Assembly: GCA_016213435.1 (NCBI GenBank)
Contig: JACRAL010000028.1
Coordinates: 2,196-66,195, forward strand
Length of the DNA: 64,000 nucleotides
Direction of reading: 5' to 3'
Source: Bacteroidota bacterium
Lineage (GTDB): Bacteria; Bacteroidota; Bacteroidia; Palsa-948
This document shows positions 31,330 through 49,500 of the stretch, piece after piece. The notes below the pieces were generated by a model, which was not told where the DNA came from, searched no databases, and was given only the letters and a program-made list of their open reading frames with translations. The translations under genes and the position numbers were made by a program. Position 1 is the first letter of the stretch, and each line of letters opens with the position of its first letter.

Positions 31330-31375
31330 GCGCTGTTAAGACCTGTTAGGATCAAAACATGAATTAAAGAAAGAA

Positions 31376-31810: not shown

Positions 31811-31969
31811 AACCCTATAAGGGGTGCGTTTTACCTATGTTTAACTTTTCAACATCTCTAAAAACCTTAAAATCAGCAAGGATTAGGGTGAATTTAAAAT
31901 AATTATGGTAATATATTTGGTCATATTAGAAAAAATGTTTTCCTTTGTCGCGGATAATAAATAATACTT

Positions 31970-33016: not shown

Positions 33017-33154
33017 AATATCGTGAAATGATTCCGGGACGATTGAAAATATTTTGCATTGACTGTGGAGAAGCATGGAAAAGCATGGAGAAGCGCGGGG
33101 AGATTCCGGGAAGGATTCTGATTAAAACATTTATTTACCGATAAAACATTTGCT

Positions 33155-33730
33155 ATGAAAAAACAAAAGAAAAATTCCTCAGAAATTTATTTAACACGAG
33201 AGATTATGATGAGGGAAATAATCTCAAAACTACTCGATACAGATTTACTTTCAGGAGAAGTAGAAAACAAGGTACTGAAAGAATACCTGATTTATGGAAA
33301 AACATACAAAGAAATCGCGCCTCTGTTCAAGCTCACGCATTTCAGGGTAAAACAGATAGTGAATAATGCTTTTGCAATAATAAAATCGAGATTATCTCGC
33401 CATGAAAATATTTTTTCCACGCTGAAAAAACAGCAGACTGAAATAGAAGAATTAAAAAGCAGCATTGCTGAAAAAGAGGAAACGGAAAATCAATTCAATT
33501 CTCTGCCGGAAGAAACGCAGAAACTTTTATCAGAAAAAATAGAAACGCTCCCTTTGGATGTGCGAATCATAAATTCCTGTATTAAGAACCATGATATTTT
33601 CTTTTTGCGGGATTTGGTAAAACTGACCAGACGCAAATTTGCCGGGATGCGAAACATAGGAAAGAAATCCATAAATGAAATGGATGAATTCCTAAACTCT
33701 AAAAGATTGACATGGGAAATGAATGTTTAA
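33155..33730 (+). CDS. Hypothetical protein with sigma-70 region-4-like HTH and RNA-polymerase alpha-CTD-like helix-hairpin-helix domain
   Basis: 'LKEYLIYGKTYKEIAPLFKLTHFRVKQIVNNA' resembles sigma region 4. The C-terminal 'LPLDVRIINSCIKNHDIFFLRDLVKLTRRKFAGMRNIGKKSINEMDEFL' matches the RpoA alpha-CTD consensus. Confidence 0.5.
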   Translation: MKKQKKNSSEIYLTREIMMREIISKLLDTDLLSGEVENKVLKEYLIYGKTYKEIAPLFKLTHFRVKQIVNNAFAIIKSRLSRHENIFSTLKKQQTEIEELKSSIAEKEETENQFNSLPEETQKLLSEKIETLPLDVRIINSCIKNHDIFFLRDLVKLTRRKFAGMRNIGKKSINEMDEFLNSKRLTWEMNV

Positions 33731-33780
33731 TCCCAAAACTTATCTATGAAAAAATACAATTTATTTAATATATAATTCAG

Positions 33781-34017
33781 ATGACAACAGTACGAAAACT
33801 TGAGTTGAAGCCGTATTCAGTAACAGACCTTGCTAAGATTTACGGAGTATGCAACCGCACCTTCAAAAAATGGGTGAAAGACATAAAGGAAGTGGGTCCG
33901 AAGAAGGGGCGATATTATTCCATTCCTCAAGTAAAAATTATTTTTGAAAACATGAAAGTCCCTACTCAAATCATTATTGAGACGGGGACACAGAAATCGG
34001 AATTGGATTTAGTTTAA
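33781..34017 (+). CDS. Small HTH-like protein, paralog 1 (DUF4248-like; Xis/MerR-type HTH?)
   Basis: 78 aa with 'LELKPYSVTDLAKIYGVCNRTFKKWVK...GRYYSIPQVKIIFE', shared with two downstream paralogs. Confidence 0.55.
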   Translation: MTTVRKLELKPYSVTDLAKIYGVCNRTFKKWVKDIKEVGPKKGRYYSIPQVKIIFENMKVPTQIIIETGTQKSELDLV

Positions 34018-34065
34018 CATCATCTTCTTCCTGCCCTAATCCGATAGTTTTTATTTTTCTTCTTT

Positions 34066-34092
34066 AAGCAGAGAGGCTTCTCTGCTTTTTTA
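34066..34092 (+). terminator. Rho-independent terminator (AAGCAGAGAGGCTTCTCTGCTTTTTT)
   Basis: 9-bp perfect stem plus T6; downstream of paralog 1. Confidence 0.6.
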
Positions 34093-34305
34093 TTACCCGA
34101 ATTTTTCTTCAAAAAAATTTCTTGCCGTAAAACCGGACAAGAACGGAAATTGTTTTGCACGAAGTGGAATAATTCGGCACGAACGGACACAAACTTACAT
34201 AAACCTACATAAACGGAAACTGCCCGGAATCCGACACGCGACCTTTACAAAAAATCAGGGAGAAATCCCTAATGCAAAGGGAAACTAATCATAAAATAAA
34301 TTAAA

Positions 34306-35076
34306 ATGGAAAACACAAATCAACACAGGGCTGAAAAACAGAACATGATTCTGAGACCCTGCACAGTAAAAGAACTCTCGGCATTTTACCGGGTTTCAAA
34401 AACCACAATTAGAAAATGGCTTGAACGCTACAAGGAAGAAATTGGTGAGCGCACCGGACATTTCTATATGATTGAACAAGTAAAAATCATTTTTGAAAAA
34501 TTCGGTGTTCCGTCAGGAAAACAAATAGTATTTCCAAAACCCGAAACTTTTACCGATGAAGTTTCTGAATTTACAGAGGCAGCATGGGATTTTGCTTGCG
34601 CGTTATTATGGAAAGACAAAATCTTCTGCACGGAAGAAATTGCACTAAGCAAAAATCACCTGCGGGAATTTTTTACCATTCCCAACAAGAGCGGAAATCC
34701 AATCTCTCTGTCCAAACGCCTTTCCGTATTCTGCCAGCGAATCACGCTCACGCGAATGTTCCTTGATTATAAACCTCAGCGTTTCATTCCCTCCCCCGCA
34801 CTTTGGCTTGACCGAAATTACAAATACGGATTTGCCGGAACGCTCAAATGGTTCAAATGGATTAGCGAAGAAAGAAAAGAGAATCCCTATGTGCGCGAAG
34901 AACTCCGTGTGCTTGCCGATTTATACTGCGAGTATATCAAAACAAAATCTGCTGCCGAAGTAATGAATAAGGCAGGAGATTATTTCCTGAAGAAAAATTT
35001 CATGCACCTATTCAGAATTTTTTCCGATTGCATTTCTCATATCGGCAACAAAACTAACTATCAACTCGCTGCATAA
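34306..35076 (+). CDS. HTH-like paralog 2 with ~170-aa C-terminal extension
   Basis: N-terminus 'ILRPCTVKELSAFYRVSKTTIRKWLERYKEEIGERTGHFYMIEQVKIIFEKFGVP' is paralogous to 33781 and 35119. Confidence 0.55.
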   Translation: MENTNQHRAEKQNMILRPCTVKELSAFYRVSKTTIRKWLERYKEEIGERTGHFYMIEQVKIIFEKFGVPSGKQIVFPKPETFTDEVSEFTEAAWDFACALLWKDKIFCTEEIALSKNHLREFFTIPNKSGNPISLSKRLSVFCQRITLTRMFLDYKPQRFIPSPALWLDRNYKYGFAGTLKWFKWISEERKENPYVREELRVLADLYCEYIKTKSAAEVMNKAGDYFLKKNFMHLFRIFSDCISHIGNKTNYQLAA

Positions 35077-35118
35077 AATTAATTTTTCAAATAAAGAAAG
35101 ATAATTCACTATAAATAT

Positions 35119-35373
35119 TTGACTATGAAAAACGAACAAGCAAACGAAAAAAAGTCAACAGTAAGGTTGGAACTTAAACCGTATACACCCTTGCAACTAT
35201 CGAAAATTTACGGAGTGAGCAAAGTAACATTCCTTAAATGGATAAAGGAGCTAAAGCAAGAACTCGGAAAGCGCAACGGACATTATTATTCCATTCCGCA
35301 AGTGAAAATAATCTTTTCAGAATTCCTGTTGCCTTCTTACATCGAAATTGAAACGGACATAATCGTAAAATGA
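35119..35373 (+). CDS. Small HTH-like protein, paralog 3
   Basis: 'LELKPYTPLQLSKIYGVSKVTFLKWIKELKQELGKRNGHYYSIPQVKIIFSEF'. Confidence 0.55.
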   Translation: MTMKNEQANEKKSTVRLELKPYTPLQLSKIYGVSKVTFLKWIKELKQELGKRNGHYYSIPQVKIIFSEFLLPSYIEIETDIIVK

Positions 35374-35476
35374 TTTACACAATCGTAAAGAGTTTGGCAA
35401 AATCGTTTAGGGTCGTTTAAAATCGTAAACCCCTCCGAAAATACAGTCAGACCTTTGTAAAAAATCCGGAAGGAAT

Positions 35477-35671
35477 ATGCAACAAGATACACATACATCA
35501 AACAGCACTTCTTCGGTGGTTCTCACCGGAGCCATCCTGTTCGCAAACCTTGACGCTTCAGGGCTTGCAGAATACGCGGTGAAAGCCGCCATCGGTGGAG
35601 CGATATGGCTTGTGTTCAAAATCACGAGCGATTATGTAAGCGAAAGAATTAAAAACAAAAAAGAGAAATGA
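35477..35671 (+). CDS. Small membrane protein
   Basis: 64 aa with one hydrophobic helix; overlaps the next ORF by 4 nt. Confidence 0.35.
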   Translation: MQQDTHTSNSTSSVVLTGAILFANLDASGLAEYAVKAAIGGAIWLVFKITSDYVSERIKNKKEK

Positions 35672-36147
35672 GCCTAAAAAAAATACTTGTCGGTTCTGCC
35701 ATTGGCGGAGGAATAATCGCAGGGGTTACATATTTCTTTCGATTAAAAAGAACGAGCGTGGAGCTTGAATCTTATGCGAAGGTGAACATTTTCAAACTTG
35801 ATTTAAGCGGATTGGTTTTGCAGGTGGACGTGCAACTGAAAAATCCAACTCGCACAAAATTCAAAATAAAGTTCCCCTTCATCAAACTCATTTATAAAGA
35901 TGCGACCATCGGAAGCTCTCAGGTTGTGGACAAGGACATCACGATTCCCGCCTACGGAGAAGCAGTCGCAGAAAAAATAATGATAACGATTCCACCGCGA
36001 AATATTTTTTCGGTGAGCGCAGGGCTGATAAAATCCCTTTTGGCAGGTGAACAAGTGAAGCTGAATTCAAAAACAATCTCAACGATTGATTTGGGCTGGA
36101 AAAAACTCCCCTACGAAAAAACAGAAGAAGTAACCCTGAAAAACTAA
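35668..36147 (+). CDS. TM-anchored LEA_2/WHy-like (Hin1-type) beta-sandwich protein
   Basis: N-terminal transmembrane helix, then a 'VDVQLKNPTRTKFKIKFPFIKLIYKDATIGSSQV...IPAYGE' pattern typical of LEA14/WHy domains. Confidence 0.4.
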   Translation: MSLKKILVGSAIGGGIIAGVTYFFRLKRTSVELESYAKVNIFKLDLSGLVLQVDVQLKNPTRTKFKIKFPFIKLIYKDATIGSSQVVDKDITIPAYGEAVAEKIMITIPPRNIFSVSAGLIKSLLAGEQVKLNSKTISTIDLGWKKLPYEKTEEVTLKN

Positions 36148-37655
36148 TGGAAGCATTAAAACATAGAAAAATAAAAAGCGGAGCGCAGTACGAACACCTG
36201 TTTCCTTCAGCGAACCTGAAAGACGAAACTGTTAAGAAGGGCGCTTCTGTTTACGATACGGTGAAGTTCATTCCAAAAGTAGTAAGGGAAACTCTGCCGC
36301 AGACCGAAGGAATTTCAAAAATGCTTCGCGGAAATACCTTGAGCGAAACCTGCAAGAATATTTGGGATTTTGTTTACCATCATATCAACTACAACAAAGA
36401 CGAAGATGGAACAGAGCAAATCCGTTCACCTGCCCGGACGTGGCATGACCGTTCGCGTGGAGTGGACTGCGATTGCTACACGGTATTCATCAGCAGCATT
36501 CTTTCAAATCTGAAAATACCGCACACGCTTCGCATAGCAAAATACCGGAAAGATTATTTCCAGCACATCTATCCGATAGTCCACAAAACCAACGGCAAGT
36601 ACATCACGATTGATTGCGTGGTGGACTATTTCAACTACGAAGAACCATATACAGAAATAAAAGACAAAACAATGGATTTACAATACCTAAGCGGAATAGA
36701 AAATTCCGAATCAGAATTCGGAAACTCCGAAGATGAATCTCTCGGAAAAAAGAAAGGCAAAGGAAAGTTGAAAGACCTTCTGAAGAAAGGACTTCACATC
36801 GCCAACCGCGCGAATCCTGCCACGCTTCTTCTTCGCAACGGGCTTCTCGCCTCCATGAAGCTCAATATTATGAAAGTCGGGCAACGGCTGAAGTATGCTT
36901 ACATGAGCGATGAGCAGGCAAAGCAGAAGGGAGTTGATACGGCAAAATTCCAACACCTGAAAACAATCAAAGACAAACTCGAAAAGATTTTTTACGGAGC
37001 GGGAGGAAAACCTGAAAACCTGAAGAAAGCAATTCTAACAGGAAAGGGAAATAAAAAAGGCAAGCACGATGTAGACGGGCTTGGAGATTTTGAATATGAC
37101 ACGAATCTCGGAGACATGAACGAAGCAACTCCGCTTCCTCAACTGCTAGGAGATGAAATGTATCGTTCTGAAAATGCAGAAACGCTCGGTGCGCTCGGAG
37201 AACCAGTAACGGCAGCATCCATCACGGCAGCCACAGGCGCGATTGCGAGCATCGCGGCTCTTTTGAAAAAGATTGGAAATATTTTTCCGAAGAATGATAA
37301 AGAAGACGAAAGTGCAAAAGATTTTCAAACTACGGATAAGGACACAGACCCAAATAATGTTCAAAAGGAAATCGAGCAAAACAAAGATGAAATAGTAAAG
37401 ATGGACGCATCCACAAAAAAAGTGGACACATCAACCGATGATTCATCGGGAAGCGGAGATGATTCCACCAAGCAGGGATTTTGGGACAAGAATAAAAAAT
37501 GGATAAAGCCAACTGCAATCGGAGTAACAGGTTTGGGCTTGCTTTATCTCGGCTATCGCGCAATCACAGGACACAAAGAAGAAAACCATCCAAAGCAGTT
37601 ATCAGGAACGAAAAATAAAAAGCATCCCAAAAAAGAACCTGTGGCTTTGATGTAA
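36147..37655 (+). CDS. Transglutaminase-like cysteine-protease-domain protein with long disordered K/D/G-rich region and C-terminal TM helix
   Basis: TGase-core triad pattern: 'RSRGVDCDCYTVF' (Cys), 'YFQHIYPIV' (His), 'YITIDCV' (Asp). The central 250 aa are low-complexity, and there is a C-terminal hydrophobic helix. Confidence 0.55.
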   Translation: MEALKHRKIKSGAQYEHLFPSANLKDETVKKGASVYDTVKFIPKVVRETLPQTEGISKMLRGNTLSETCKNIWDFVYHHINYNKDEDGTEQIRSPARTWHDRSRGVDCDCYTVFISSILSNLKIPHTLRIAKYRKDYFQHIYPIVHKTNGKYITIDCVVDYFNYEEPYTEIKDKTMDLQYLSGIENSESEFGNSEDESLGKKKGKGKLKDLLKKGLHIANRANPATLLLRNGLLASMKLNIMKVGQRLKYAYMSDEQAKQKGVDTAKFQHLKTIKDKLEKIFYGAGGKPENLKKAILTGKGNKKGKHDVDGLGDFEYDTNLGDMNEATPLPQLLGDEMYRSENAETLGALGEPVTAASITAATGAIASIAALLKKIGNIFPKNDKEDESAKDFQTTDKDTDPNNVQKEIEQNKDEIVKMDASTKKVDTSTDDSSGSGDDSTKQGFWDKNKKWIKPTAIGVTGLGLLYLGYRAITGHKEENHPKQLSGTKNKKHPKKEPVALM

Positions 37656-37695
37656 AAAGAAAAAACAATTCACTAACAATTAAAAACAAAAAACA

Positions 37696-38331
37696 ATGAG
37701 CAAAAATTCTTACGAAAGAGCCGCACAGAAAAAATCCCTGCTTGGTGAAATCACCAAAGACCTGGAGACAAAAGGGGATTTGAAAAATACTGCGATAGAG
37801 ACATTGAAAGATGTCGTGATAGGAGTAGTCGCAGGAGGCGTAGCCGGTTCCGCCATCGGGCGCGCTTCACTTCTGATTGGAGCGGCAGTAACAGGTCTTG
37901 GACATTATTACAAAAGCCGTCTCGCTTCCATTTTCGGAGTGGGCATGATGGCAGCGAACGGTTTTCAGCAAACCGACACGCAGATGAAAGGAACTCCGAA
38001 AGACGGATTGGAAGGCGCACTCGAAGGAGCTAAAGAGCGCGTGATGAATTTCAAAGACACTTTCGGTCAGAAACTTTTCCTCGACAAAGTTTTGAAAAGC
38101 AAAGAGCAAAAGAAAGAGGAAGAATCCACCAAAGGAGTTGGCGATGTTCAGTATTTCACTTATCCCGAAAACAAAGAACTCGGAGAAGGCAAGGAACAAC
38201 TTGACCTCACCGCGCTTGACAAACTGGAAAAGCAAGTTGCCGAAAGCGGAGCATCTTTTTCACAGAAAGGAACAGGAAATCTTCCCGCGAACGAAATGGG
38301 AGAGATTGACCCAAGCGAACAAAATTTTTAA
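37696..38331 (+). CDS. Hypothetical protein with glycine-zipper TM segment
   Basis: 'VVIGVVAGGVAGSAIGRASLLIGAAVTGLG' and an acidic C-terminus. Confidence 0.4.
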   Translation: MSKNSYERAAQKKSLLGEITKDLETKGDLKNTAIETLKDVVIGVVAGGVAGSAIGRASLLIGAAVTGLGHYYKSRLASIFGVGMMAANGFQQTDTQMKGTPKDGLEGALEGAKERVMNFKDTFGQKLFLDKVLKSKEQKKEEESTKGVGDVQYFTYPENKELGEGKEQLDLTALDKLEKQVAESGASFSQKGTGNLPANEMGEIDPSEQNF

Positions 38332-38378
38332 AACGAAAATCAAAAACAATTATCACTAACAATTAAAACCCAAAAACC

Positions 38379-39107
38379 ATGTTCGGAGATTTAAATGCAA
38401 CAGAAGAGTACAACAACGCGGGAGCGTTGCTTGGACTGGACGGAGACAACGAGGAACTCGTAGGCGATGTGCTTGGAGTTCTCAAACAAATGAACCCATT
38501 AAAAAGGTGGCGCACGATGAACCGTCTCACCGCGCCCGCGCCTGCAAGCAAAGGAAGCCGAGCTGAAATGGAAAAACATTTCCACGAACTTCCCAAGCAC
38601 ATTCAGGAAGGGTTGAAAAAAGGAGAACTGCGCTTGGCGGACACCGTGATTTATTCCATCAAGCCCGCAAATTCCAAAACCATCAAGCTGTTTGAAACGC
38701 AGGATGTGAGGGAAATCGGATTGAGGAATATTTCCAACGCCAAACTTCCAAAGAACCAAGCTCTGCTTGTGAGCGGAATTATTTTGCTCGCAGGAGTTTC
38801 AGAAAACCAAACTCCCGATGCGGTGATGGCAACTGCTTTTGCAGGAATTGAAACTGTTCCCGCTTTCAGCACAGGAGAGTTTGATTTGAAAGCGAACAAA
38901 AAGCAAATAGTTCCTGAAACAAGCAACAATGTTTTCAAAACCGCTGGCTTCACAATGGTTCCGGCAGGGTATTACAAACTCGCCAACCCTCGCCTCATCC
39001 ACGATGACATCCTGATTGAGCTGACCATTTCGCTCGGCACGATGCAGGGCGTGAACCCCAACGCGCAGATCTGGGCAGGGCTTCACGGAACCATCACCAC
39101 TCCGTAA
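38379..39107 (+). CDS. Hypothetical protein (candidate virion/structural)
   Basis: 242-aa ORF in a co-directional block; no motif recognised. Confidence 0.4.
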   Translation: MFGDLNATEEYNNAGALLGLDGDNEELVGDVLGVLKQMNPLKRWRTMNRLTAPAPASKGSRAEMEKHFHELPKHIQEGLKKGELRLADTVIYSIKPANSKTIKLFETQDVREIGLRNISNAKLPKNQALLVSGIILLAGVSENQTPDAVMATAFAGIETVPAFSTGEFDLKANKKQIVPETSNNVFKTAGFTMVPAGYYKLANPRLIHDDILIELTISLGTMQGVNPNAQIWAGLHGTITTP

Positions 39108-39218
39108 AGCGGTGAATTGGCAAAAAGCAGGTGGCAGAGCGTGCAAATGTAAAATGCAGCCTGCCTCTGCTACGCCAATTTTTTTAAAACGAATGACAAA
39201 CGATTAACAACAAACGCG

Positions 39219-39605
39219 ATGATAAAAACAGAATACAAACGATTTGACCTCAAGGTAACGCAGGCGAATAAAACCGTCTCGCAATCTTTTGAGCTTGACA
39301 AAAATTTTGTCGCGGTGAAAGGAATGATGCTCACTTCTGACAGGCGCGATTTGCTTTTCTTTCGCGGGTCTCAGCGAATTGAAATCAACAAGGACGAATT
39401 ATTTCCATCTGAATACCTGAGTGAAATGCTGATGTCAGGAATAAATGTTCCGATAAACGAGCGGTATCACAATTTAGGAAGCGTTGACACAGGAAATAAA
39501 ATCGTGAAGATGGAATTCACAGACAGCGATGCCTTCGGAACTGCTTTCGCACCCTACACAGTTTACCTCTTTTTAAAATGCGATAAAAAAGATTCAAATG
39601 ATTAA
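39219..39605 (+). CDS. Hypothetical protein
   Basis: 128 aa; overlaps the next gene by 8 nt. Confidence 0.4.
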   Translation: MIKTEYKRFDLKVTQANKTVSQSFELDKNFVAVKGMMLTSDRRDLLFFRGSQRIEINKDELFPSEYLSEMLMSGINVPINERYHNLGSVDTGNKIVKMEFTDSDAFGTAFAPYTVYLFLKCDKKDSND

Positions 39606-40224
39606 GCGAAGAATCATAGCGACAAAAATCAGCATCACCAAACAGGGAGAAATAAAATTCTTTCAGGTGAAAGTTCCATTCGATGCGAAAGTCATTATCG
39701 GGATTGAAACAGCCATGCGCCTGAAAACATTTCGGGTTTTTCCAAGCCAACCGATTTTAGTTCCATTTGATAATCCCTACGGAAATATTGTTGCCTTCAA
39801 CGGAACAGGAAATCCAACTGGTCAGGCAATAAATGGTTCCGGGATTTTTCCGATAAATAATTTTTCACCCTCTCCGATTGATTCACCGATTGGCGCAACA
39901 AGAAATTCTCTTGTCGGTGAATTGAAATTGCAAAGCAGCGATGATTCAAATATTTTTTACGCAACGAATATTTCAGACCCGTCCGTGAAAGAAGGATTGG
40001 ACAAAGTTCCTTCGGTGAATTTCATGATTGAAAATGTGTGGACGCACGGCTACAAACGCCAATTAGAGGAAGTTCTTGTGGATGCAAACACAACGGTTAT
40101 CGCTGGGCTATACAAAGACAGGCTCGGAGAAATGCTGAAGGCGGATGTTTCCTACGATGTCTTCCTATATATATGGTACAAGTTTGAAAAACCCATTGAC
40201 AATGACAATCAACCTTGCTCTTGA
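39598..40224 (+). CDS. Hypothetical protein
   Basis: 208 aa, with a beta-rich G/P/N-rich middle region. Confidence 0.4.
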   Translation: MIKRRIIATKISITKQGEIKFFQVKVPFDAKVIIGIETAMRLKTFRVFPSQPILVPFDNPYGNIVAFNGTGNPTGQAINGSGIFPINNFSPSPIDSPIGATRNSLVGELKLQSSDDSNIFYATNISDPSVKEGLDKVPSVNFMIENVWTHGYKRQLEEVLVDANTTVIAGLYKDRLGEMLKADVSYDVFLYIWYKFEKPIDNDNQPCS

Positions 40225-40522
40225 ATACATCCCGCGAAGAATGGAAGAACTGGGTTTCGGAAACGATTACTACCTGCGCTTCCGGCACTTTGTTCTGCAA
40301 CCCTCAGAACAGTTGGATGTCCCCGCATTCAACCAGTTCTTCATCCTCGTGGAAGAAGCGCAGGACGTGAGCGTGAAATCAGAATTCGGAATTTTTGATT
40401 TGAGTTTGAAGAACGCGAATGAAATGTTATACGAACATCAGGGGCAAATCACATTACAAAACTACGCTTCGGCAGTAAATCATATCCGGTTTATTCAGGT
40501 AATCCCGAAGCATAAAATTTAA
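40202..40522 (+). CDS. Hypothetical protein
   Basis: Internal ATG at 40202 chosen to minimise overlap with the previous gene. Confidence 0.35.
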   Translation: MTINLALEYIPRRMEELGFGNDYYLRFRHFVLQPSEQLDVPAFNQFFILVEEAQDVSVKSEFGIFDLSLKNANEMLYEHQGQITLQNYASAVNHIRFIQVIPKHKI

Positions 40523-40527
40523 AAACA

Positions 40528-40779
40528 ATGAAAACAGAAGAACAAAGTAACGAGAGATTCTTTTTGGAAAAGATGATTTCTGAAAATATAAAGAACCACC
40601 GCATAGAGTGGGAATTGGAGCAAGCAAAAAGTGAATTGACACAAAGCCGGTCTCAACTCTCCGATGCGGAAGAATACATCAGTAAGCTCGAATCGCTGCT
40701 GAAAGAGAAGAAAGAGAAAATAGAAAAACTGGAAGCACACGCAATCGCGCTTCAGTTTATACAGCTCTTGTGGCAGTAA
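40528..40779 (+). CDS. Small coiled-coil protein
   Basis: 83 aa with heptad-rich E/K/L sequence. Confidence 0.4.
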   Translation: MKTEEQSNERFFLEKMISENIKNHRIEWELEQAKSELTQSRSQLSDAEEYISKLESLLKEKKEKIEKLEAHAIALQFIQLLWQ

Positions 40780-40827
40780 ATCACATACGATTAATAAACG
40801 TTATTCCAAAGCATAAAACGAAATAAA

Positions 40828-41631
40828 ATGGAAGAAAAACAAAAGGAAAATCCGATTTCTAAAAAATATTCTCCTTTCAATCTCGAACAGTTTAAAAACT
40901 GGTTGAAGGATATGAAAGAAAAAGGAGAGACAAAATACATTGAAGTTTATGTGGACGATTTCAAAGTCGTCTCCAAAACGGATAACCCCGACCACTTCGA
41001 CAGCCACGAACAGTTTGTAGATGATGAGACGGAAAAAATAAGGGTGCTTGTTTACAACACGGAAAAATCCAACCGCTCCAAGCAGCACATTTTTAAATTG
41101 AAAGATTCTTCCCAGTCGTTGAACGGGATTGAAGTGGAAAAGAAAATTGAAGACGGAATAAACAAGGGACTGAAAGCAATGGAGGAAAAACTTCTCTGCG
41201 ACCAAGTGAAGAAGGAACTTGAGGACACAAAATTCAAGTTAAAGGAATCGGAAGAATGGAATGAAAAGCTCGAAGGTGTCATTGAGGAAACGAAAAAGAA
41301 ACTGGAGGATGCAAAAGGAATGTCCGATTTCACAGGGATTATCAAAGACCTGGCACTCCCTCATATTCTCGGAAAAAAATCGGAAGAAAAATCTTCCCTC
41401 TCAGGAAACGAAAAGCCAAAGGAGGAAGCGAGCTTCAAAATGAAATCCTCTGAAGAAAGCGGCTTATCGGAAGATGACAAATTCTATTTGGATTTCGGAG
41501 GCAAAATGAAAGCCGCTTTTTCAAAAGAAGAATTTGACATGGTGTTCGACATCATTGGGGAATTCGTGAAAGATAAAACCAACATCAAACCCGTAACGGA
41601 ATTATTAAACATTAACCAAATAAAAAAATAA
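40828..41631 (+). CDS. Acidic coiled-coil protein
   Basis: 267 aa, E/K-rich (scaffold-like). Confidence 0.45.
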   Translation: MEEKQKENPISKKYSPFNLEQFKNWLKDMKEKGETKYIEVYVDDFKVVSKTDNPDHFDSHEQFVDDETEKIRVLVYNTEKSNRSKQHIFKLKDSSQSLNGIEVEKKIEDGINKGLKAMEEKLLCDQVKKELEDTKFKLKESEEWNEKLEGVIEETKKKLEDAKGMSDFTGIIKDLALPHILGKKSEEKSSLSGNEKPKEEASFKMKSSEESGLSEDDKFYLDFGGKMKAAFSKEEFDMVFDIIGEFVKDKTNIKPVTELLNINQIKK

Positions 41632-41635
41632 CAAA

Positions 41636-42001
41636 ATGGAAAAACTGAATTATCAAATTTCATTCTACGCAGAAGATGAAATCGAAGCGTACGAACGGCT
41701 TAAAAAATTCCTGCTTCGCAATTTCCCTCCTTATTACAGGGTAAAACTTCTGGAACCGGAAGAAGTCATCGAAACGGAGATTGACAAAATGTTTGAGGAA
41801 TTATACGGAGGACTGAATAAACAAAAACCCAAAGAAACGGAAGTTCCAAAAGAAACTGAAAAGGAAAAGTTTCTGAAAGGTTTAATGGAATTTGAAACGG
41901 TCATTCAAATCATCGGAAAATGCCTGAGCGATGAAACCGCCCTTGACCGAATCGCAAAGATGTTCGGAATAAATGTTAAACCTGAAACAACAAAACCCTG
42001 A
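41636..42001 (+). CDS. Hypothetical protein
   Basis: 121 aa; its stop overlaps the next start (ATGA). Confidence 0.4.
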   Translation: MEKLNYQISFYAEDEIEAYERLKKFLLRNFPPYYRVKLLEPEEVIETEIDKMFEELYGGLNKQKPKETEVPKETEKEKFLKGLMEFETVIQIIGKCLSDETALDRIAKMFGINVKPETTKP

Positions 42002-42183
42002 TGAAAAAATTCAACTGTGATTTTTCCGTACCTGCAAACACGCAGGCGGAAGCCGAAATGAAGATGGACGCGCTGACCATACTTGCCACCTTCCTTACTG
42101 CGGATGAGCTGAAAAAACTGGCGCACGTTGTAAAAAATGACCCGATAAAAACATCATTGGCAAAATCCTATCTCGGAGTATAA
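42001..42183 (+). CDS. Hypothetical small protein
   Basis: 60 aa, translationally coupled with neighbours. Confidence 0.3.
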   Translation: MKKFNCDFSVPANTQAEAEMKMDALTILATFLTADELKKLAHVVKNDPIKTSLAKSYLGV

Positions 42184-42184
42184 A

Positions 42185-42880
42185 ATGAAAACGCTTGGCA
42201 ATAAGGAAAAGGAAGATTTCACTCTGAAGGAAAAGCTCCTTTATGCAGGCGGGACAGTTGTCGTAACGCTGGGGACATTCTTTCTCGGAAGAAAAATAAT
42301 TCGCGGTGCTGTTTCAAACAGCGAGGAGAAAAGGACTTTCGATGAGAATTCCCCAGCGACTTACGCCAAGAGAATCAAAATGGCTTTTGATAATGATGGA
42401 TGGTTCGGAACGAACACGCCTGAACTGAGAAAAATTCTGATTGAGATTCCGAGCAAGAAAGCGATGACACAGGTTTCCAATTCCTATCAGAAACTTTATC
42501 ACTCTCCTCTTTACAAGGACATGGCAGATGAACTTCAAAGCACGGAGTACAATGAGATGCTTGCGATTGTAAATGCCAAGCCCGACAGGATTGAAAAAAG
42601 AAAAAAAGGAAATGCTCCGAACAAACCTACTGCAACGCAATATGAGGATTGGGCAAAGCGGATGAAGGCGGCATTTGATAAATCCTACGGACCATTCCCC
42701 GGTACAGATGAAGATGCAGTCAAAGCGGTGTTTACCGAGATGCCAACGCAAGACGCATTTGTTGAAACAGCAAAAGCATATTTCAAACTATACAACAGCA
42801 ATATGCTTGACGACTTAAAGAGCGAAATGGACGACTGGCAGGACTACATGAAAATAATAACATCGAAACCTCAGAAATAA
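42185..42880 (+). CDS. Membrane-anchored protein with two annexin-like repeats (bacterial annexin)
   Basis: N-terminal transmembrane helix. Two ~70-aa repeats follow: 'YAKRIKMAFDNDGWFGTNTPELRKILIEIPSKKAMTQVSNSYQKLY...' and 'WAKRMKAAFDKSYGPFPGTDEDAVKAVFTEMPTQDAFVETAKAYFKLYNSNMLDDLKSEM'. Both match the annexin repeat consensus, including 'GTDE'. Confidence 0.55.
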   Translation: MKTLGNKEKEDFTLKEKLLYAGGTVVVTLGTFFLGRKIIRGAVSNSEEKRTFDENSPATYAKRIKMAFDNDGWFGTNTPELRKILIEIPSKKAMTQVSNSYQKLYHSPLYKDMADELQSTEYNEMLAIVNAKPDRIEKRKKGNAPNKPTATQYEDWAKRMKAAFDKSYGPFPGTDEDAVKAVFTEMPTQDAFVETAKAYFKLYNSNMLDDLKSEMDDWQDYMKIITSKPQK

Positions 42881-42881
42881 A

Positions 42882-43775
42882 ATGGAAAAGGAAAAACCAA
42901 ACAAGAAGAAAAAATTCCTTCTCATAGGATTAGGAGTTGCGGCAACGGGATTACTCAGCTATTTCGGTTGGGAATATTATCAGAAGAAGAAAAAAGAAAA
43001 AGAAGGTAATGCTGATGATTCATCATCCGACACCGATACTCAGCCAGTCATTCCGCAGAAAAGCACATTCGCACCGAAATTTTTTACGCAACCGCAAACA
43101 CGGAACGATGATTTTCCATTGAAGAAAGGAAGCAAGGGAGCAAAAGTGAAATCAGTACAGGATGCTCTTATTGCAAAAAATGGAAAAGGAATTCTTCCGC
43201 GTTACGGAGCCGATGGAGATTTCGGAAGCGAAATGGTTACCGCTCTGAAGAAACTCAACCTGCCCGACACCATTGATGAAACTACTTACAATGTAATCGT
43301 GCAGTCATCCTCATCTTCTTTTGATGCAGGCGCACTTGCCAAAGCTCTCTACAAAGATGCCGTGAACAAAAACATCAATGGAGTTATCAATTCCCTGAAG
43401 AAGATGAGTACGAAAGACGATTACACCGCAGTCAGCAACGAATTCAAAAAACTCAGCCTGCGCGGAGTAAGCCAAACGCTTGTGAACGGATTGCTCGGCA
43501 GTTTCCCGGACGAAAATCAGAAACAGCAAATCCGTTTGGAGTTTTCACGGATGGGTTTGAAGTACGATGGAAAAAAATGGTCGCTTTCAGGATTGGATGG
43601 ATTCAAAGTAATCACTACTGAGGCTACAACCGTTTGGAGAACTCCGAATGAAGGCGCGAAAGTTCCCGCGAAAATGATTTTAGGAACTGAAATAGCTACG
43701 AGTAAAGGATTCACCCTTTTTGAAAACAACGGAAGAAAATTCATAGTCAAAACATCAACGATAAAATATTTATAA
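42882..43775 (+). CDS. Membrane-anchored peptidoglycan-binding (PG_binding_1) domain protein
   Basis: N-terminal transmembrane helix. 'LKKGSKGAKVKSVQDALIAKNGKGILPRYGADGDFGSEMVTALKKLNLPDT' fits the PG_binding_1 consensus. The C-terminus has a weak annexin-like repeat. Confidence 0.55.
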   Translation: MEKEKPNKKKKFLLIGLGVAATGLLSYFGWEYYQKKKKEKEGNADDSSSDTDTQPVIPQKSTFAPKFFTQPQTRNDDFPLKKGSKGAKVKSVQDALIAKNGKGILPRYGADGDFGSEMVTALKKLNLPDTIDETTYNVIVQSSSSSFDAGALAKALYKDAVNKNINGVINSLKKMSTKDDYTAVSNEFKKLSLRGVSQTLVNGLLGSFPDENQKQQIRLEFSRMGLKYDGKKWSLSGLDGFKVITTEATTVWRTPNEGAKVPAKMILGTEIATSKGFTLFENNGRKFIVKTSTIKYL

Positions 43776-43788
43776 AAAACAAAACACA

Positions 43789-44226
43789 ATGAGAATAATA
43801 AATTTCATCGTGGTGCATTGCACCGCCACACCGCCAACGGCAACAGTTGAGGCGATAAAAAAATACTGGAAGGAAGTAAAAAAATGGGGCGACACGCCCG
43901 GCTATCACTACTTGATTCACCGTGATGGAGAAATCGAGCAACTGCTTGACGAAAGCAGAATGAGCTACGGAGCATACGGACACAATCCCGAATGCGTACA
44001 TATTTCTTACATCGGGGGAATTGACAAAGACGGAAAACCGATTGACAACCGGACTTCCGCGCAGAAACATTCCATGTTCGATAAGCTCATGGAGCTTTCT
44101 GAAAAATATCCGCAGGCAAAAATTCTCGGACACAGGGATTTTCCAAATGTGGCGAAAGCGTGTCCGAGTTTTGATGTGAGAGAATGGCTACGCAATTACG
44201 AACCCGATTTAAAAGGCGCAGCATGA
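43789..44226 (+). CDS. N-acetylmuramoyl-L-alanine amidase (Amidase_2 / PGRP / T7-lysozyme family)
   Basis: 'IVVHCTATPP', 'GYHYLIHRDGEIEQL', 'HISYIGG' and 'CPSFD'; 145 aa, like phage endolysins. Confidence 0.85.
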   Translation: MRIINFIVVHCTATPPTATVEAIKKYWKEVKKWGDTPGYHYLIHRDGEIEQLLDESRMSYGAYGHNPECVHISYIGGIDKDGKPIDNRTSAQKHSMFDKLMELSEKYPQAKILGHRDFPNVAKACPSFDVREWLRNYEPDLKGAA

Positions 44227-44891
44227 TTTTTCCGAGAGTAAAATCCATACTTCGCAGAAACGGTTATGTGTTGCACACGCGCCCTTACGAACTGAACATC
44301 GTGGGAGTTCGCACACGAAGCACAATTCCTAATCGCTTTGATGATGAGATACACGTTTTCTACAAATCAAAACCAACGAAATGGGAGTATCACATTTTTA
44401 AGGCGACAACGGACCCCGGGACATTTTGGTTGGAGAATCCGATGCAACCACAGGGGACAGCCATACTTGCACAAGGGCAATATGTAAATGCCTACCAAAT
44501 CGGAATGCACTTGGGAAAATACAAAGCCCTCGTGCAAGTGGCTCCCGTTGCTATCATGCGCGACTATAACCGCAATGCGAAGTTGGATTTTCTCAACGGA
44601 AAAAAAGAAGAAGGAATTTACGGAATCAACATTCACAGGGCAATGGCACAGGGGAAAACAAAATACATAGACAAGTTTTCCGCAGGATGCCAGGTCTTTC
44701 AAAGCGCAGAGGACTTTGAACATTTTATGGAGATGTGTGATAAGCATAGCAAGTTGTACGGAAACCGATTCACTTACACCTTGCTTGACTTTCGCGCCCT
44801 GCGGAGAGAATCCATCAAAAGAATTGTAATCGGAACATTAACTCTCGGTTTGGGATTAATCGGATATATCAACTACGACACCAATGAATGA
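44223..44891 (+). CDS. Hypothetical protein (possible second cell-wall-active domain)
   Basis: Start overlaps the amidase stop (ATGA); a conserved Cys in 'FSAGCQVF'; no confident family. Confidence 0.4.
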   Translation: MIFPRVKSILRRNGYVLHTRPYELNIVGVRTRSTIPNRFDDEIHVFYKSKPTKWEYHIFKATTDPGTFWLENPMQPQGTAILAQGQYVNAYQIGMHLGKYKALVQVAPVAIMRDYNRNAKLDFLNGKKEEGIYGINIHRAMAQGKTKYIDKFSAGCQVFQSAEDFEHFMEMCDKHSKLYGNRFTYTLLDFRALRRESIKRIVIGTLTLGLGLIGYINYDTNE

Positions 44892-45126
44892 TTTCATAAA
44901 ACAATTAATGAAGGACAAAGAGGGAAATTATTCTCTCAGGGAAGCAGTAACACTTGTGTTTGTCGCGGCTACGCTCGTGAGTTGGCTCGCACAGCAATTT
45001 TTCTCAGTAGCAGTTCCCGAATATATGTTTTACTCTTTCGTCAGCATCATCGGTGCAGGTTGCTTCGGTTATTCCATCGAGAAGAAAACAAAAACATTTA
45101 CTAACGAAAAAAACGAAAACCCATGA
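44884..45126 (+). CDS. Holin-like small membrane protein (2 TM)
   Basis: 80 aa with two hydrophobic helices and a charged C-terminus; follows the amidase. Confidence 0.4.
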   Translation: MNDFIKQLMKDKEGNYSLREAVTLVFVAATLVSWLAQQFFSVAVPEYMFYSFVSIIGAGCFGYSIEKKTKTFTNEKNENP

Positions 45127-45809
45127 TTGACTTTTTAACAGAAACCAAAATCAAAATCCTGAACAAGCGTACTGTAATCATTACATTCATGTTCGGTTTT
45201 TTTTCCGCGCTTTCTTCCTTGCTCCTTTATCATTCGATAGAGGGCTTTAAAAGCGAATTGAAAGAATCCAAGATTGTAATAAAGGAAATGACCGCTCAGG
45301 TAAGTTCCATTGAAAGCAATTATCAATCACAGCTTCAATACTGGATTCGGAAAAACAATTACCTGCAAGAGCAGATTCAGAAAACTGATTTTGCTTTGAC
45401 AGAATCAAAGCAAAAAGAAAAATCCTTGCAGGGAAAAATTCTGGGATTGATTTCAGAAAGCAAAACCCTGACCGATACTTCTGAAATAATTTCCAACTGC
45501 GGTTCGATAAAAGAAAAAACAGAACAATTTATTTCAGAAACTAATTCGAGAGATAGTTTATGTGATACGGAAATTACCGAATTGAAAATTGTAATTCAGA
45601 ACAAGGATTCTGCTATGGCAGTATGTCAAAACAGTTTCTCCATACTGAAACAAGTTACGGATTCATCCCTCACGTTTCAAAACAAACTAACGGATGAACT
45701 GAAACTTGCCGATAAGAAAATAAGGCGGGGAAATATCAAATCAAAATTTCTAACCGCAGGCATAATGATTCTATCCGGGGTAACAACCACTCTATTATTG
45801 AAAAAATGA
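45123..45809 (+). CDS. Spanin-like coiled-coil membrane protein
   Basis: N- and C-terminal transmembrane helices flank a ~160-aa coiled coil; sits within the lysis-like cassette. Confidence 0.4.
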   Translation: MIDFLTETKIKILNKRTVIITFMFGFFSALSSLLLYHSIEGFKSELKESKIVIKEMTAQVSSIESNYQSQLQYWIRKNNYLQEQIQKTDFALTESKQKEKSLQGKILGLISESKTLTDTSEIISNCGSIKEKTEQFISETNSRDSLCDTEITELKIVIQNKDSAMAVCQNSFSILKQVTDSSLTFQNKLTDELKLADKKIRRGNIKSKFLTAGIMILSGVTTTLLLKK

Positions 45810-46018
45810 AAGCACCCATGAAAGAAAAGGTGATTGTATCGTCTCTCACCTTGATAACATCGCTTACAGGATATTTCTACGCCAAGAGTGCAGAGAAAGA
45901 TGTTGTGCCTTACATGATGGTAAGCGGCTTTCTCGGTGCAATTCTCGGTGAAGCAATCGCTCACACCTTTTTCTCAGACGACAACGATAAAAATAACAAA
46001 CCTAAAAAACCAAAGTAA
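45806..46018 (+). CDS. Small membrane protein (2 TM)
   Basis: 70 aa with a basic C-terminus. Confidence 0.35.
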   Translation: MKAPMKEKVIVSSLTLITSLTGYFYAKSAEKDVVPYMMVSGFLGAILGEAIAHTFFSDDNDKNNKPKKPK

Positions 46019-46020
46019 CA

Positions 46021-46571
46021 TGACAGCATTTGCAACACAAATCCTAAACAACGGAGCCTCGCTGAAAATTATTTCAGCCGATGGAACTCGTAATATTTTG
46101 AAAAATCAAATCCATGAAGTGAGCGTAATCAACGACACGGTAATTAAAATTGATATTGGTCAGGGAGCGTTGAACAATATCTTCATCAATTTTCCCGAAG
46201 TCAGCAATCCTCAAACGCCAACTCCTGATGCACTCGTGGATGCAATCAACATAATGCTTCAAAATACTATTGTAATTCCTCCCGGCATTTCCACCGAGCT
46301 GAACCAACAAAAGGAAATTACGGACTTGGACAGCATAAAATCTTCCTTGCTGTTTCAGGCTCCGCAGATTTCCGATGAAACGAATCCGAAAACTATTTAT
46401 AAAGGATTCGCAGTTCCCGGCTCAAGAACTTCTGATGCAGTTTGGGCGATTCAGAAAATCACAAACAACAGGGGAATCTACACTTACCTGTGGGCGGGTG
46501 GAAATCAAAACTTTGACAAGGTTTGGGACAACCGAGCAACATTAATTTATCCGCCAAGTGCTAATGCGTAA
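46021..46571 (+). CDS. Hypothetical protein
   Basis: ATG at 46021 within the listed ORF 45936..46571; ends by overlapping the giant gene start. Confidence 0.4.
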
Positions 46572-49500
46572 GCATAAACCATATCAGGTAAAACCCGAAA
46601 TGATTTTCACGCTTGGGTATTTGCAGCAAGGCGAGATACCCGAAGTGAAACTGCGATTGAACAGGTCTTCCCGAAAAAAACTTTTCGGGAAGATTGGTTC
46701 ATCGAAAGATGTAGCAGATTTCATCCGTAAGATTTATAAACGCGGTGAAATTGAATTGCAGGAACAATTTATCGTGCTGTATCTCGACAGGGGAAATAAT
46801 ATTATTGGATTTTACAGGCATACCACAGGTGCGATAAGCGGAACGATTGCCGATGTGAGAATTATTCTTGCGGCTGCTTTGAAAAGCGCAAGCACTTCCA
46901 TTATTATAGCTCACAATCATCCAAGCGGAAACCTTCAACCAAGCCAAGCAGACATTGACCTCACAAAAAAGATAAAGGAAAGTGCGAACACAATGGATAT
47001 TTCCCTGCTTGACCATGTGATTGTAACAAAGGATGGTTATTATTCCTTCGGAGATGAAGGATTGGTTGGCTTGGAAGAAAATGAAATCGGTTTTGTAAAC
47101 AGCAAGCTCAAGCCGGATATCAATAAAGTGATTCAAGGCGATGTTCTCGAAACCCTAAAAGATTTTCCCGATGAGAGCGTGGACTGTGTTATCACTTCAC
47201 CTCCGTACTGGCAACTGCGCGACTATGGATGGAAAGGGCAATGGGGCTTGGAAAAAACTTTTGACAAGTACCTTGAGAATCTTTGGAAACTCATGGATGA
47301 AATCAGGCGCGTACTTAAACCGAAAGGAACTGTTTGGATTAATCTTGGCGACACTTACGGAACACAGTCGGGAACGGGCCGGGGAACGCAGTACATCAGC
47401 AAAAGCACAAAGCACCATGTAGAAAACGGAGCAACTCTCATCAAAGGAAAAGCTCCGCATAAATCACAATTATTAATTCCGCATCGCTTCGCTATCGGGT
47501 GTATGGAACGCGGATGGATTGTACGCAATGATATTATTTGGGCGAAGAAAAATTCAATGCCTGAAAGCGTGAAAGACCGTTTTGCAAAAAAGCATGAGTA
47601 CGTTTTCTTGATGGTAAAAGAAAAGGATTATTATTTCGATTTGGACAGCGTGAGAGAACCGCATAAGGCAGAATCAGTCGAGAGAACAAAGCGCGGATGG
47701 AACGGACACAGGGAAAAAGGAAGTTCGTATGAAAACATGGATGAAAAAAAGATGTGCCACCCTGACGGAAAGAATCCCGGAGACATTTCTGATTTTTGGA
47801 AAATTCAAAACAAAGGCGGACACGATAAACACTATGCAAAATACAGTTCCGACTTACTCACCAAGCCGATTCTTGCAGGTTGTCCCAAAGGCGGAATTGT
47901 ACTGGACCCGTTCTGCGGGACTGCAAGCACAGGCGTAAGGGCGATTGAACTCGGAAGAAAATTCATCGGCATTGAAGGGAAGAAAGAATACTGCCACATA
48001 GCCGAAAAGAATCTGAAAAATATTTCCCTGAACGGATTGGGATTACTCAGCACTATTCCCAAGTGGCAGTTCGTTGAAAAAGTTGAAAAGGATTTGGAGA
48101 AAAAAATTTCCTACAACAAACGCTCTATTGAAAAACTTGCAGCAACCTTCGGAATCCACGATAAAACTTTGGTGAAGGAACTTACAGAACTTGCTATTGT
48201 ACGCAGGGCAAGATCCCTCGCGCACAGTCAGGAAAGCGAAAAGGAAAAATTTGATTCCATTGTTGAGCTATACAACAGCCAGGTCAATCTTTCCCACCGC
48301 ACAAGCCAAAGTATTTTATTGCAACAATATTCTACGCCCGCGCCAATCACATTCCTCGCAGGAATATTTGTTGGCGCGGACAAAGGCGTTTCTGTTTTTG
48401 AACCAAGCGCAGGAAATGGATTATTGACGATTGCAGGAACAGAGCAGAATATTATTGTAAATGAAATTGATTCTGTACGCAGGGAAAATCTGCACACGCA
48501 GGGGTACAAAATGGTTTTGAACCGCGATGCGACAAAACCATTTCCTGAGTTTTATCAAAAGATGAGCGCAGTTATTACCAATCCCCCTTTCGGTACGCTT
48601 GATACCGAAGTGATGTACGATAACTTTCCGATTAAAACGCTCGACCACCTGATGGCTCTGCGTGCGCTCGATACGATGAGGGACAACGGAAAGGCATCCA
48701 TCATAATCGGTGGGCACACGCAATGGGATGAGAAAGGCAGAATACAGGCAGGAAAGAACCGAATCTTTTTCAATTATCTGTATAGCCGCTATAACGTAAT
48801 TGACGTAATCAATATTGACGGCAGTTTATATTCACGGCAGGGAACATCCTTCGATGTGAGATTGATTTTGATTGACGGCAGAAAAAAAAATCCGCAGGGA
48901 GCCGCGCCTGTAAAAAATTCCGAACTATCTAATACTGTAAAAACATTTGATGCTTTATACGAAAGGGTGAACGATGCAATTAGCGCAAGCGGGCTTTCGG
49001 AAATCAAAAGATTCAATTCTCTGAAAGAAAAATATCCCGATGTGGTTTTGCTTTTAAATACAGGAAGTTTTTACGAAACATTCGGGGAAGATGCTGTTGC
49101 AACCTCAAAAATTATCGGAACTGTTTTATCGCATCGCAACGGTATTCCCGTAACGGGCTTCCCGCTTGTTTCCCTCGACAGTTATTTATCAAAACTCGTG
49201 AGAAGCGGAAACAAAGTAGCGATTGCCGATGAATTACAAAATCCAAAATCAATGAAACAAAATATTTCTTCTTTAGAACGCGAAGCATTGGCTTTGCAAA
49301 GACAACTTTTAGGCGAGGAACTTGGCTCGCCCTACATTCCCGCTTCCGAATCCTGCGTTGTGCTGAATACGCAAGTTCCCGATTCGATGAGCTTTGAAAC
49401 GCAGAAAGCACTCGAACAAATCCGTGAAGAAGTTGGCGGAGACATTGATGCGTTTGTACGGCATAGATTAAATTTTCGTAGTAAGATGGAACTCTGCAAG

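Follow-up and report, generated by a model that had tools for sequence, protein, structure and literature searches.

The window analysed here is a 64,000-nucleotide (nt) stretch (positions 2,196 to 66,195) of contig JACRAL010000028.1, assembly GCA_016213435.1, from a Bacteroidota bacterium. It holds an integrated mobile element, one gene of which, g15, encodes a protein 100% identical to the NCBI entry 'hypothetical protein HY840_02830 [Bacteroidetes bacterium]' on a 73-kb contig of a metagenome-assembled genome. The g15 product is a genuine annexin composed of a single-pass membrane anchor, a helical stalk of some 20 residues and two homologous five-helix repeats. The genes around it are tightly packed, with 1-nt gaps on both sides of g15 and then overlaps through g22, and g15 lies beside cell-wall-active genes (PG_binding_1-like g16, the Amidase_2 gene g17 and hydrolase-like g18), as had been stated in an earlier reading made from the letters alone (hereafter the original prediction).

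The original prediction had described two annexin repeats of ~70 amino acids (aa) behind a transmembrane anchor and had named a PF00191 scan and a fold comparison as checks. Both were positive, and two ~75-aa repeats were found by Pfam, PDB searches, AlphaFold2 (AF2) modelling and hhalign. The Pfam Annexin model PF00191 matched the g15 product marginally in two stretches (E=9.3e-6; 26.1 bits vs a gathering score of 25), the best stretch within repeat 1 covering residues 75-118; of the 120 closest relatives, about half carry PF00191 as a precomputed match. A PDB search with the single sequence returned annexins in 21/21 matches, and a profile of 35 family members (53-87% identical) did so in 43/43, with a best E-value of 3.3e-9. 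All 50 Foldseek PDB matches listed were annexins or annexin-A2 fusion constructs (probability 1.00). The two repeats aligned with each other in hhalign at 99.3% probability (E=2.4e-20), and in the profile repeat 2 aligned to repeat 1 of AnxA4 over GTDEDAI...LIDDLKSEL.

That a helical repeat protein merely mimics the annexin signature is hardly credible. The Pfam score exceeds the gathering cut-off by just 1.1 bits, the first Gly of G-x-G-T is absent, and the Foldseek template modelling scores (TM-scores) reach only ~0.3, which the 50-residue N-terminal helix and the flexible linker explain; against such mimicry, the three independent searches gave annexins throughout, the profile improved the E-value to 3e-9, and each repeat has five properly spaced helices. 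The alignment is also in register at the G-T, D-E and acidic cap positions, including an identical DDLKSE, and relatives carry fully canonical motifs.

The AF2 model, for which the 35-member family alignment was the input, had a mean predicted local distance difference test score (pLDDT) of 80, mostly above 90 in the repeats. The helices of repeat 1 span residues 57-72, 78-87, 91-105, 109-116 and 119-130, and those of repeat 2 span 150-164, 176-185, 189-203, 207-214 and 218-226. The basic linker between them is poorly conserved, variable in length and of low pLDDT (below 50 at residues 139-143), and the relative orientation of the two repeats was not confidently modelled (predicted TM-score, 0.43). 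The canonical eukaryotic core has four repeats; two are found here and one in the short forms, and bacterial annexins, with 1-5 domains (PMC3894181), need not have four. A possible degenerate third repeat, which the original prediction had placed in the C-terminal part of the adjacent g16 protein (43311-43560), was without support at sequence level. The g16 product had no Pfam match even at E<=10, and when its family was aligned with the annexin family by hhalign only the transmembrane helices matched (probability 1.5% and 5.5%). The middle domain of g16 reached 13% with annexin repeat 1 and 0.2% with repeat 2, no better than the negative control, an unrelated peptidoglycan (PG)-binding domain (9.8%); the positive control was repeat 1 against repeat 2, given above.

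A type II Ca2+ site consists of a (K)-G-x-G-T loop between helices A and B and an acidic residue ~38-40 positions downstream. The 'GTDE' motif that the original prediction had noticed in repeat 2 is present as 'PFPGTDED' (residues 170-177, nt 42692-42715), and the acidic cap E214 lies within LDDLKSE, with the same reading in annexins A4/A5; 'DDLKSE' covers residues 209-214. In both repeats the cap follows the loop Gly by 41 residues, a one-residue insertion relative to AnxA3/A4. Among 285 distinct full-length family members, G75 was conserved in 98%, T76 in 93% and E/D at 116 in 94% for repeat 1, and G173 in 86%, T174 in 93%, D175 in 99% and E/D at 214 in 94% for repeat 2. W73 was kept in 81%, and position 171 was hydrophobic in ~94%. 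This conservation of loops and caps indicates that the membrane/Ca2+ face is under strong (purifying) selection. Single-repeat relatives carry canonical A-G-W-G-T-N-E or G-V-G-T-D-E-D loops. The site in g15 appears to depart from this canonical form; binding of Ca2+ and of lipid is predicted by analogy.

The anchor has a Kyte-Doolittle hydropathy of 1.38 (family median, 1.71), contains a Gly (G30) that is invariant in the family alignment, and falls in the AF2 model within one continuous long helix, residues 14-52, which leaves a stalk of about 17 residues between the bilayer and the annexin domain. Counting of charges showed more K+R on the C-terminal flank of the anchor in 86% of 84 family members, and the opposite bias (N-in/C-out in 88%) in the neighbouring g16 protein, as its PG-binding function requires. 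The annexin domain is therefore predicted to be cytoplasmic.

Table 1. Coordinates of the annexin gene, its parts, its neighbours and the element in the window (ORF, open reading frame; HTH, helix-turn-helix).
Feature	Position	Strand	Evidence
g15, membrane-anchored two-repeat annexin gene, 231 aa	42185..42880	+	ORF, PF00191, family profile, AF2/Foldseek
Hydrophobic anchor, residues ~17-35 (KLLYAGGTVVVTLGTFFLG), then RKIIR	42233..42289	+	hydropathy scan, AF2 helix
Annexin repeat 1, residues 55-131	42347..42577	+	five AF2 helices
Repeat 1 AB loop G72-W-F-G-T76	42398-42412	+	
Repeat 1 acidic cap E116	42530-42532	+	
Basic linker, residues 132-149, net charge +5	42578..42631	+	charge, pLDDT, alignment
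Annexin repeat 2, residues 150-229	42632..42871	+	five AF2 helices
Repeat 2 AB loop P172-G-T-D-E176	42698-42712	+	
Repeat 2 acidic cap E214	42824-42826	+	
g14, 60-aa gene directly upstream of g15, 1-nt gap	42001..42183	+	tblastn
g16, transmembrane-anchored PG_binding_1-like protein directly downstream of g15, 1-nt gap	42882..43775	+	profile matches
g17, N-acetylmuramoyl-L-alanine amidase (Amidase_2), without anchor	43789..44226	+	PF01510 E=4.9e-16; phrog_822 E=4.5e-48
g18, second probable cell-wall enzyme, C-terminal hydrophobic tail	44184..44891	+	PHROG matches
g19, 80 aa, two hydrophobic segments, holin-like	44884-45126	+	hydropathy; no family match
g20 (228 aa; transmembrane, coiled coil, transmembrane) and g21 (70 aa, membrane protein)	up to 46018	+	hydropathy
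g07, best-conserved core protein	38379..39107	+	60/60 loci, median 66% identity
Integrated element (ends approximate)	31970..56512	+	Pfam, collinear core, host flanks
HTH/Peptidase_M78 (ImmA/IrrE-type) regulator	31970-33016		Pfam
Conserved core g03-g22	within 31970..56512	+	collinear in 51-60 of 60 loci
Methylase-helicase giant, 2,128 aa	46558-52944	+	Pfam
g24, RecA/RadA/KaiC-like ATPase protein	52984-54459		Pfam
Large serine recombinase (Resolvase + Recombinase)	54788-56512	+	Pfam

The g15 family comprised 1,029 clusters at 90% identity (E<=1e-3), all of about 225-240 aa. An exhaustive profile search of 1.84 billion representatives gave 97 clusters at 50% identity (E<=1e-30) and also a sub-family of 130-170-aa proteins with the anchor and just one repeat. 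Among 185,579 GTDB species genomes (one genome per species) there were 142 confirmed matches, nearly all in Bacteroidota (Chitinophagaceae, Sphingobacteriales, Flavobacteriaceae and others); several genomes carried 2-3 copies, and a cultured carrier, Nemorincola caseinilytica JCM 32105 (L070), was found. The original prediction had called bacterial annexins rare, which is true across bacteria but does not describe the g15 family, with its more than a thousand clusters; across bacteria as a whole this family is rare, yet in a single phylum it is both common and mobile. No larger family of bacterial annexins has been seen to date, and no earlier one had been linked to a mobile element. Copies were also seen on short contigs in bins labelled Doudnabacteria, Micrarchaeota and Microcystis aeruginosa (L029, L047; P0186), most likely mis-binned Bacteroidota DNA and not a wider host range.

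The island in the window measures ~24.6 kb, within a range of 11-25 kb for the element, and is flanked by host genes, a resistance-nodulation-division (RND) efflux operon on the left and TPR, AhpC and SDR genes on the right. In 60 full-length loci from other genomes, seeded via the annexin gene, g03-g22 and g24 were present, collinear and co-oriented in 51-60, and the annexin occupied the same slot in all 60. Since these loci had been seeded via the annexin, the check was redone from g07, and the annexin was again in the same slot in 3/3 informative loci. Distant elements, among them a compact relative of ~11 kb, keep the slot with a one-repeat annexin. The annexin is a core gene of the element, not cargo. 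A recombinase, a regulatory switch (a divergent small HTH gene in relatives), host flanks and 2-3 copies per genome mark the element as temperate and mobile, and the serine recombinase itself occurs in just 5/60 loci. The giant gene of 6.4 kb joins a RadC-like JAB domain, an N6/N4 DNA methylase, MutS domain I and a Strawberry-notch-type helicase (AAA_34 + Helicase_C_4); it is found in only 25/60 copies, the others holding separate methylases there, and it looks like anti-restriction cargo. The g24 product, of 490-800 aa, is the only P-loop protein of the conserved set and looks more like a replication or recombination protein than a packaging ATPase.

Immediately around the annexin, g14 was found by tblastn in 53/60 loci and in every divergent element examined. 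From a basic N-terminus, the g16 protein continues through a transmembrane helix and a linker of low complexity to a PG_binding_1-like domain, followed by a middle domain that is helical and a C-terminus rich in beta structure; its profile matched 4nso, 4xxt and endolysin 7rum over FPLKKGSKG...GADGDFGSET, as well as PG-binding regions of PHROG endolysins. At the position of g17 the hydrolase is swapped in relatives for SLT (L085, 11473-12003) or DUF5675 (L090, 11401-11808), so that the annexin and its two neighbours stay fixed while the downstream hydrolase type changes. The g18 product matched phrog_3000 (unknown function, E=2e-35) and the C-terminal part of the endolysin phrog_33083 (E=1e-16), had no sequence relative in a PDB search, and carries invariant H151 and S166-A-G-C169; it may be a membrane-tethered peptidoglycan peptidase of undescribed type. 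The genes g19-g21, kept in 55-60 of 60 loci, overlap at their start and stop codons, and g20 has a weak Rz-like spanin match (phrog_89, E=0.12). Among the lysis-cassette roles the endolysin-type amidase is clear, and holin (g19, g21) and spanin (g20) are tentative assignments by size and hydropathy. The holin that the original prediction had placed nearby is plausible as the two-transmembrane 80-aa protein g19, although no family model matches it.

The nature of the element bears on what its annexin may do. The genes g04-g12 and g22 had no match in Pfam, PHROG or NCBIfam. The g07 product has 1,568 relatives, all unannotated, and no sequence match in PDB, Pfam, PHROGs or NCBIfam; its AF2 model shows a disordered N-terminal arm and an eight-strand jelly-roll-like sandwich (pLDDT 62 overall, ~80 in the core), for which the top Foldseek matches, weak in score, were mostly viral jelly-roll capsids (EhV-201, BMV/CCMV, SGIV, PBCV-1, SPV1, PLRV). 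The g07 product is a candidate for the capsid of a virus group not described so far. Two IMG/VR contigs, both called proviruses, carry the whole element (IMGVR_UViG_3300049216_000492, with L094 and L096, and IMGVR_UViG_3300043466_004445, with L095); their annexins show 47-51% identity and were reached only through g07. When viral contigs were scanned in a pattern-based manner with the annexin profile, no match was obtained and both contigs were missed; absence in pattern-seeded scans is therefore not to be read as absence. By tblastn, neither the annexin nor g07 had a match among 50,697 GenBank phages, and the annexin had none among 72,556 plasmids. A tailed prophage (Caudoviricetes) was considered and rejected, as terminase, portal, HK97-fold capsid and tail genes were not found by Pfam, PHROG or NCBIfam; there is also no room for them, because the ~24.6-kb island includes the 6.4-kb giant gene and the compact relative spans only ~11 kb.

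The label 'phage-like element' in the original prediction is thus borne out for an integrated, multi-copy element with an ImmA-type regulator, a recombinase and lysis-like genes, but not for phage structural families or GenBank phage relatives. Our conclusion is that the element is mobile and temperate and carries lysis-type genes together with a probable jelly-roll protein; it is plausibly a non-tailed, membrane-containing virus. A non-viral integrative element, transferred for instance by membrane vesicles, with the annexin driving vesicle budding or membrane contact, seems rather improbable. It would fit the lack of a terminase, portal, tail, recognised capsid family or GenBank phage relative, the many membrane proteins, and the anti-restriction-type RadC/methylase/helicase cargo typical of elements that enter cells as DNA; but relaxase, coupling protein and type IV secretion genes were likewise not seen among the proteins of the element, the g07 model points to capsid-like proteins, and IMG/VR called two copies proviruses. 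More specifically, and only tentatively, the element may represent an undescribed lineage of temperate, non-tailed, lipid-containing viruses with a small jelly-roll capsid, and g15 the first virus-encoded annexin, which would shape or line a viral membrane derived from the host cytoplasmic membrane. If so, this lineage would explain the patchy distribution of bacterial annexins and provide a vehicle for annexin gene transfer.

For g15 itself, we favour, at a probability of about 0.5, a cis-acting Ca2+/phospholipid-binding membrane organiser that serves an envelope step of a probably virus-like element. The loops G-W-x-G-T and P-G-T-D-E, each with its acidic residue 41 positions downstream, would bind Ca2+, which would bridge to anionic phospholipid head groups, while W73/F74 and F171 would dip into the bilayer. 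As only ~17 residues separate bilayer and annexin domain, the domain would act in cis, on the cytoplasmic face of its own anchoring membrane, where it might cluster lipids or bend or stabilise a patch of the membrane. The envelope step could be the building or lining of a lipid-containing particle or the readying of the membrane for controlled exit. This proposal is favoured by the many small membrane proteins, the lysis-type enzymes and the tightly packed operon. There is one supporting precedent: when expressed in the cytoplasm of E. coli, bovine annexin A4 changes how the envelope behaves under beta-lactam stress, in a manner dependent on the Ca2+ sites, one functional site being enough (PMC10569963).

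Several observations weigh against this proposal. The topology call comes from a rough count of charges, and the hydrophobicity of the anchor is only moderate. Neither repeat has the first Gly of the canonical G-x-G-T (replaced by W73 and F171), and members below 45% identity often lose the repeat-2 site (46/81 keep G-[TS]; example, L092), so that this site can be dispensed with. Bacteria have little free Ca2+ in the cytoplasm, a poor fit with a Ca2+-dependent cytoplasmic function. As for the viral context, the structural matches of g07 score weakly (E 1e-3 to 3e-2; TM-scores 0.25-0.5) and include TNF/C1q-like proteins; terminase, portal, capsid family and tail were undetected in the element by Pfam, PHROG and NCBIfam, as was an FtsK/HerA-type packaging ATPase. 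No circular free-genome contig was found, and the larger IMG/VR contig, in the part read beyond the element, is host-like DNA. Finally, no bacterial annexin has been characterised biochemically, according to a paper of 2023 (PMC10569963), and Ca2+ and lipid binding are thus extrapolated from eukaryotic annexins.

The location of g15 suggests a lysis-specific accessory as well, either for spanin-like fusion of inner and outer membrane or as a Ca2+-sensing brake or trigger on the holin, comparable to a delay by membrane repair; we regard this as doubtful, though less so than the other alternatives. Eukaryotic annexins patch wounded membranes, and Ca2+ influx at holin firing would switch on a cytoplasmic annexin. 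The translationally coupled neighbours are a PG-binding membrane protein, an amidase and hydrolase-like, holin-like and spanin-like proteins, and annexins can bring about aggregation and fusion of bilayers in vitro (PMC10569963, with reference to earlier work). The stalk, however, is far too short for spanning the periplasm, the charge bias places the annexin domain in the cytoplasm, and g20 is a better spanin candidate. Moreover, the annexin is fixed while the hydrolase type swaps, and the g14-g15-g16 trio stands at the junction of unannotated, possibly structural genes and the hydrolases, which leaves its membership of the cassette not clear-cut.

Superinfection exclusion, suggested in the original prediction, would make g15 a host-protective membrane protein that blocks DNA entry of related elements. 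Many superinfection exclusion proteins are small membrane-anchored prophage proteins, and the presence of 2-3 element copies in several genomes implies that conflict between elements exists; the same co-resident copies argue against effective exclusion. Genes for superinfection exclusion tend to be variable and accessory and to have promoters of their own, whereas g15 has an invariant position in every copy examined, distant lineages included, and is translationally coupled, separated from each neighbour by 1 nt within a long operon. PADLOC gave no significant defence-family match, its partial match (16 bits, E=0.0024) including no stretch that passed the threshold alone. This role is therefore very unlikely.

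The membrane-organiser proposal can be set beside known systems. Kodavali 2014 described 34 bacterial annexins from 17 species, mostly Bacteroidetes, with 1-5 domains and some with transmembrane segments; none were found in viruses, and genomic neighbourhoods gave 'no general clue' (PMC3894181). Short single-domain forms from Bacteroidetes included those of Cytophaga hutchinsonii (69-138), Spirosoma linguale (51-116), Fibrisoma limi (52-122) and Capnocytophaga gingivalis (50-130) (PMC3894181). The g15 family resembles these annexins in its Bacteroidetes hosts, in having one or two domains instead of four, in a domain that starts ~50-70 residues in, in predicted transmembrane regions (found in some of the 2014 proteins), in a GxGTD-like loop with a Trp/hydrophobic residue, and in a significant but remote similarity to eukaryotic annexins. 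It differs in its size of >1,000 members and its fixed slot in a mobile element; none of the 2014 proteins was among the g15-family matches listed, though some of them may belong to the family. With the eukaryotic annexins A4, A5, A3 and A12 (PDB 2zoc, 1avr, 1axn, 1aei), g15 shares the repeat fold and the register of the acidic cap from the G-T loop, allowing one inserted residue. Unlike them it has two repeats and not a four-repeat disc, 15-23% identity and a replaced first Gly, and it is permanently tethered by its anchor, whereas Ca2+ recruits the eukaryotic proteins, which are soluble. We therefore class g15 with the bacterial annexins, in a new sub-family that is tethered and carried by an element, bacterial annexins themselves being already known. 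A phage-, prophage- or element-associated annexin was not found in the literature searched.

As in PRD1, PM2 and relatives (Varidnaviria; PMC6356626, PMC5894146), the element has a compact genome with many small membrane proteins and cell-wall hydrolases alongside. A putative jelly-roll-like core protein and temperate integrated copies are further likenesses. It differs in showing no sequence similarity to that group and in that neither a double jelly-roll capsid nor an FtsK/HerA-type ATPase was recognised in it. To our knowledge, no virus of the PRD1/PM2 group encodes an annexin. The element is also of a different build from the non-tailed Bacteroidetes viruses FLiP, phiCjT23 and Cellulophaga phi48:2-like, which have 6-17 kb single-stranded DNA genomes and rolling-circle replication proteins (PMC9719478, PMC5894146). 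An Amidase_2 endolysin-type enzyme, a holin-like two-transmembrane protein and a transmembrane/coiled-coil protein in an overlapping string recall the lysis cassettes of Gram-negative phages; unlike in those, only the amidase is identified by a family model, and the stalk and predicted orientation of the annexin are not spanin-like. We know of no lysis cassette that includes an annexin.

Bacterial annexins, previously known as no more than a few dozen scattered sequences, hereby gain a concrete biological setting, with a fixed slot, a PG-binding partner and cell-wall hydrolases; their patchy distribution and their relation to eukaryotic annexins are open questions (PMC3894181, PMC10569963), and the data suggest that mobile elements spread annexin genes among bacteria. 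Family size and the fixed place in a mobile element would surprise annexin specialists. The ~20 core genes of this widespread Bacteroidota element are almost all unannotated and barely present in standard phage collections. The function of the annexin is testable, as there are cultured carriers, namely Nemorincola caseinilytica JCM 32105 for the annexin gene and Dinghuibacter silviterrae for g07, the g07 protein of the latter also being found on an assembled contig that bears the full element.

Further observations concern the edges and repeats of the island. At the right edge, the final ~54 codons of the recombinase ORF contain, on the opposite strand, a well-formed tRNA-Ser(GGA) gene (56350-56441, -); the left edge (31300-31970) showed neither a partial copy of a tRNA nor a flanking direct repeat. 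A 42-nt motif occurs three times in the regulatory region (33904-33945, 34453-34494, 35275-35316), two copies of a 62-nt repeat (40471-40532, 40772-40833) end at the g11 and g12 start codons, and g06 and g07 are each preceded by a 29-nt leader (TCACTAACAATTAAAA...ATG; 37670-37698, 38353-38381). Operators or translation/transcription signals are possible explanations of these motifs.

The g05 product (36147-37655, +; 500-600 aa in relatives) shows an invariant D-C-D-C...H...D pattern, and its N-terminal domain, with a faint transglutaminase-like (DUF553) match, is followed by segments of low complexity and hydrophobic ones; a cysteine protease associated with the membrane, or a protein with the transglutaminase fold, would be possible identities. 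In the regulatory part, the protein encoded at 33155-33730 (+) has a region like the C-terminal domain of RNA polymerase alpha and a weak sigma-70 region 4 match. It was found by tblastn in none of the 60 full loci, and a PF03118 protein is encoded at the corresponding place in L089 (696-1664).

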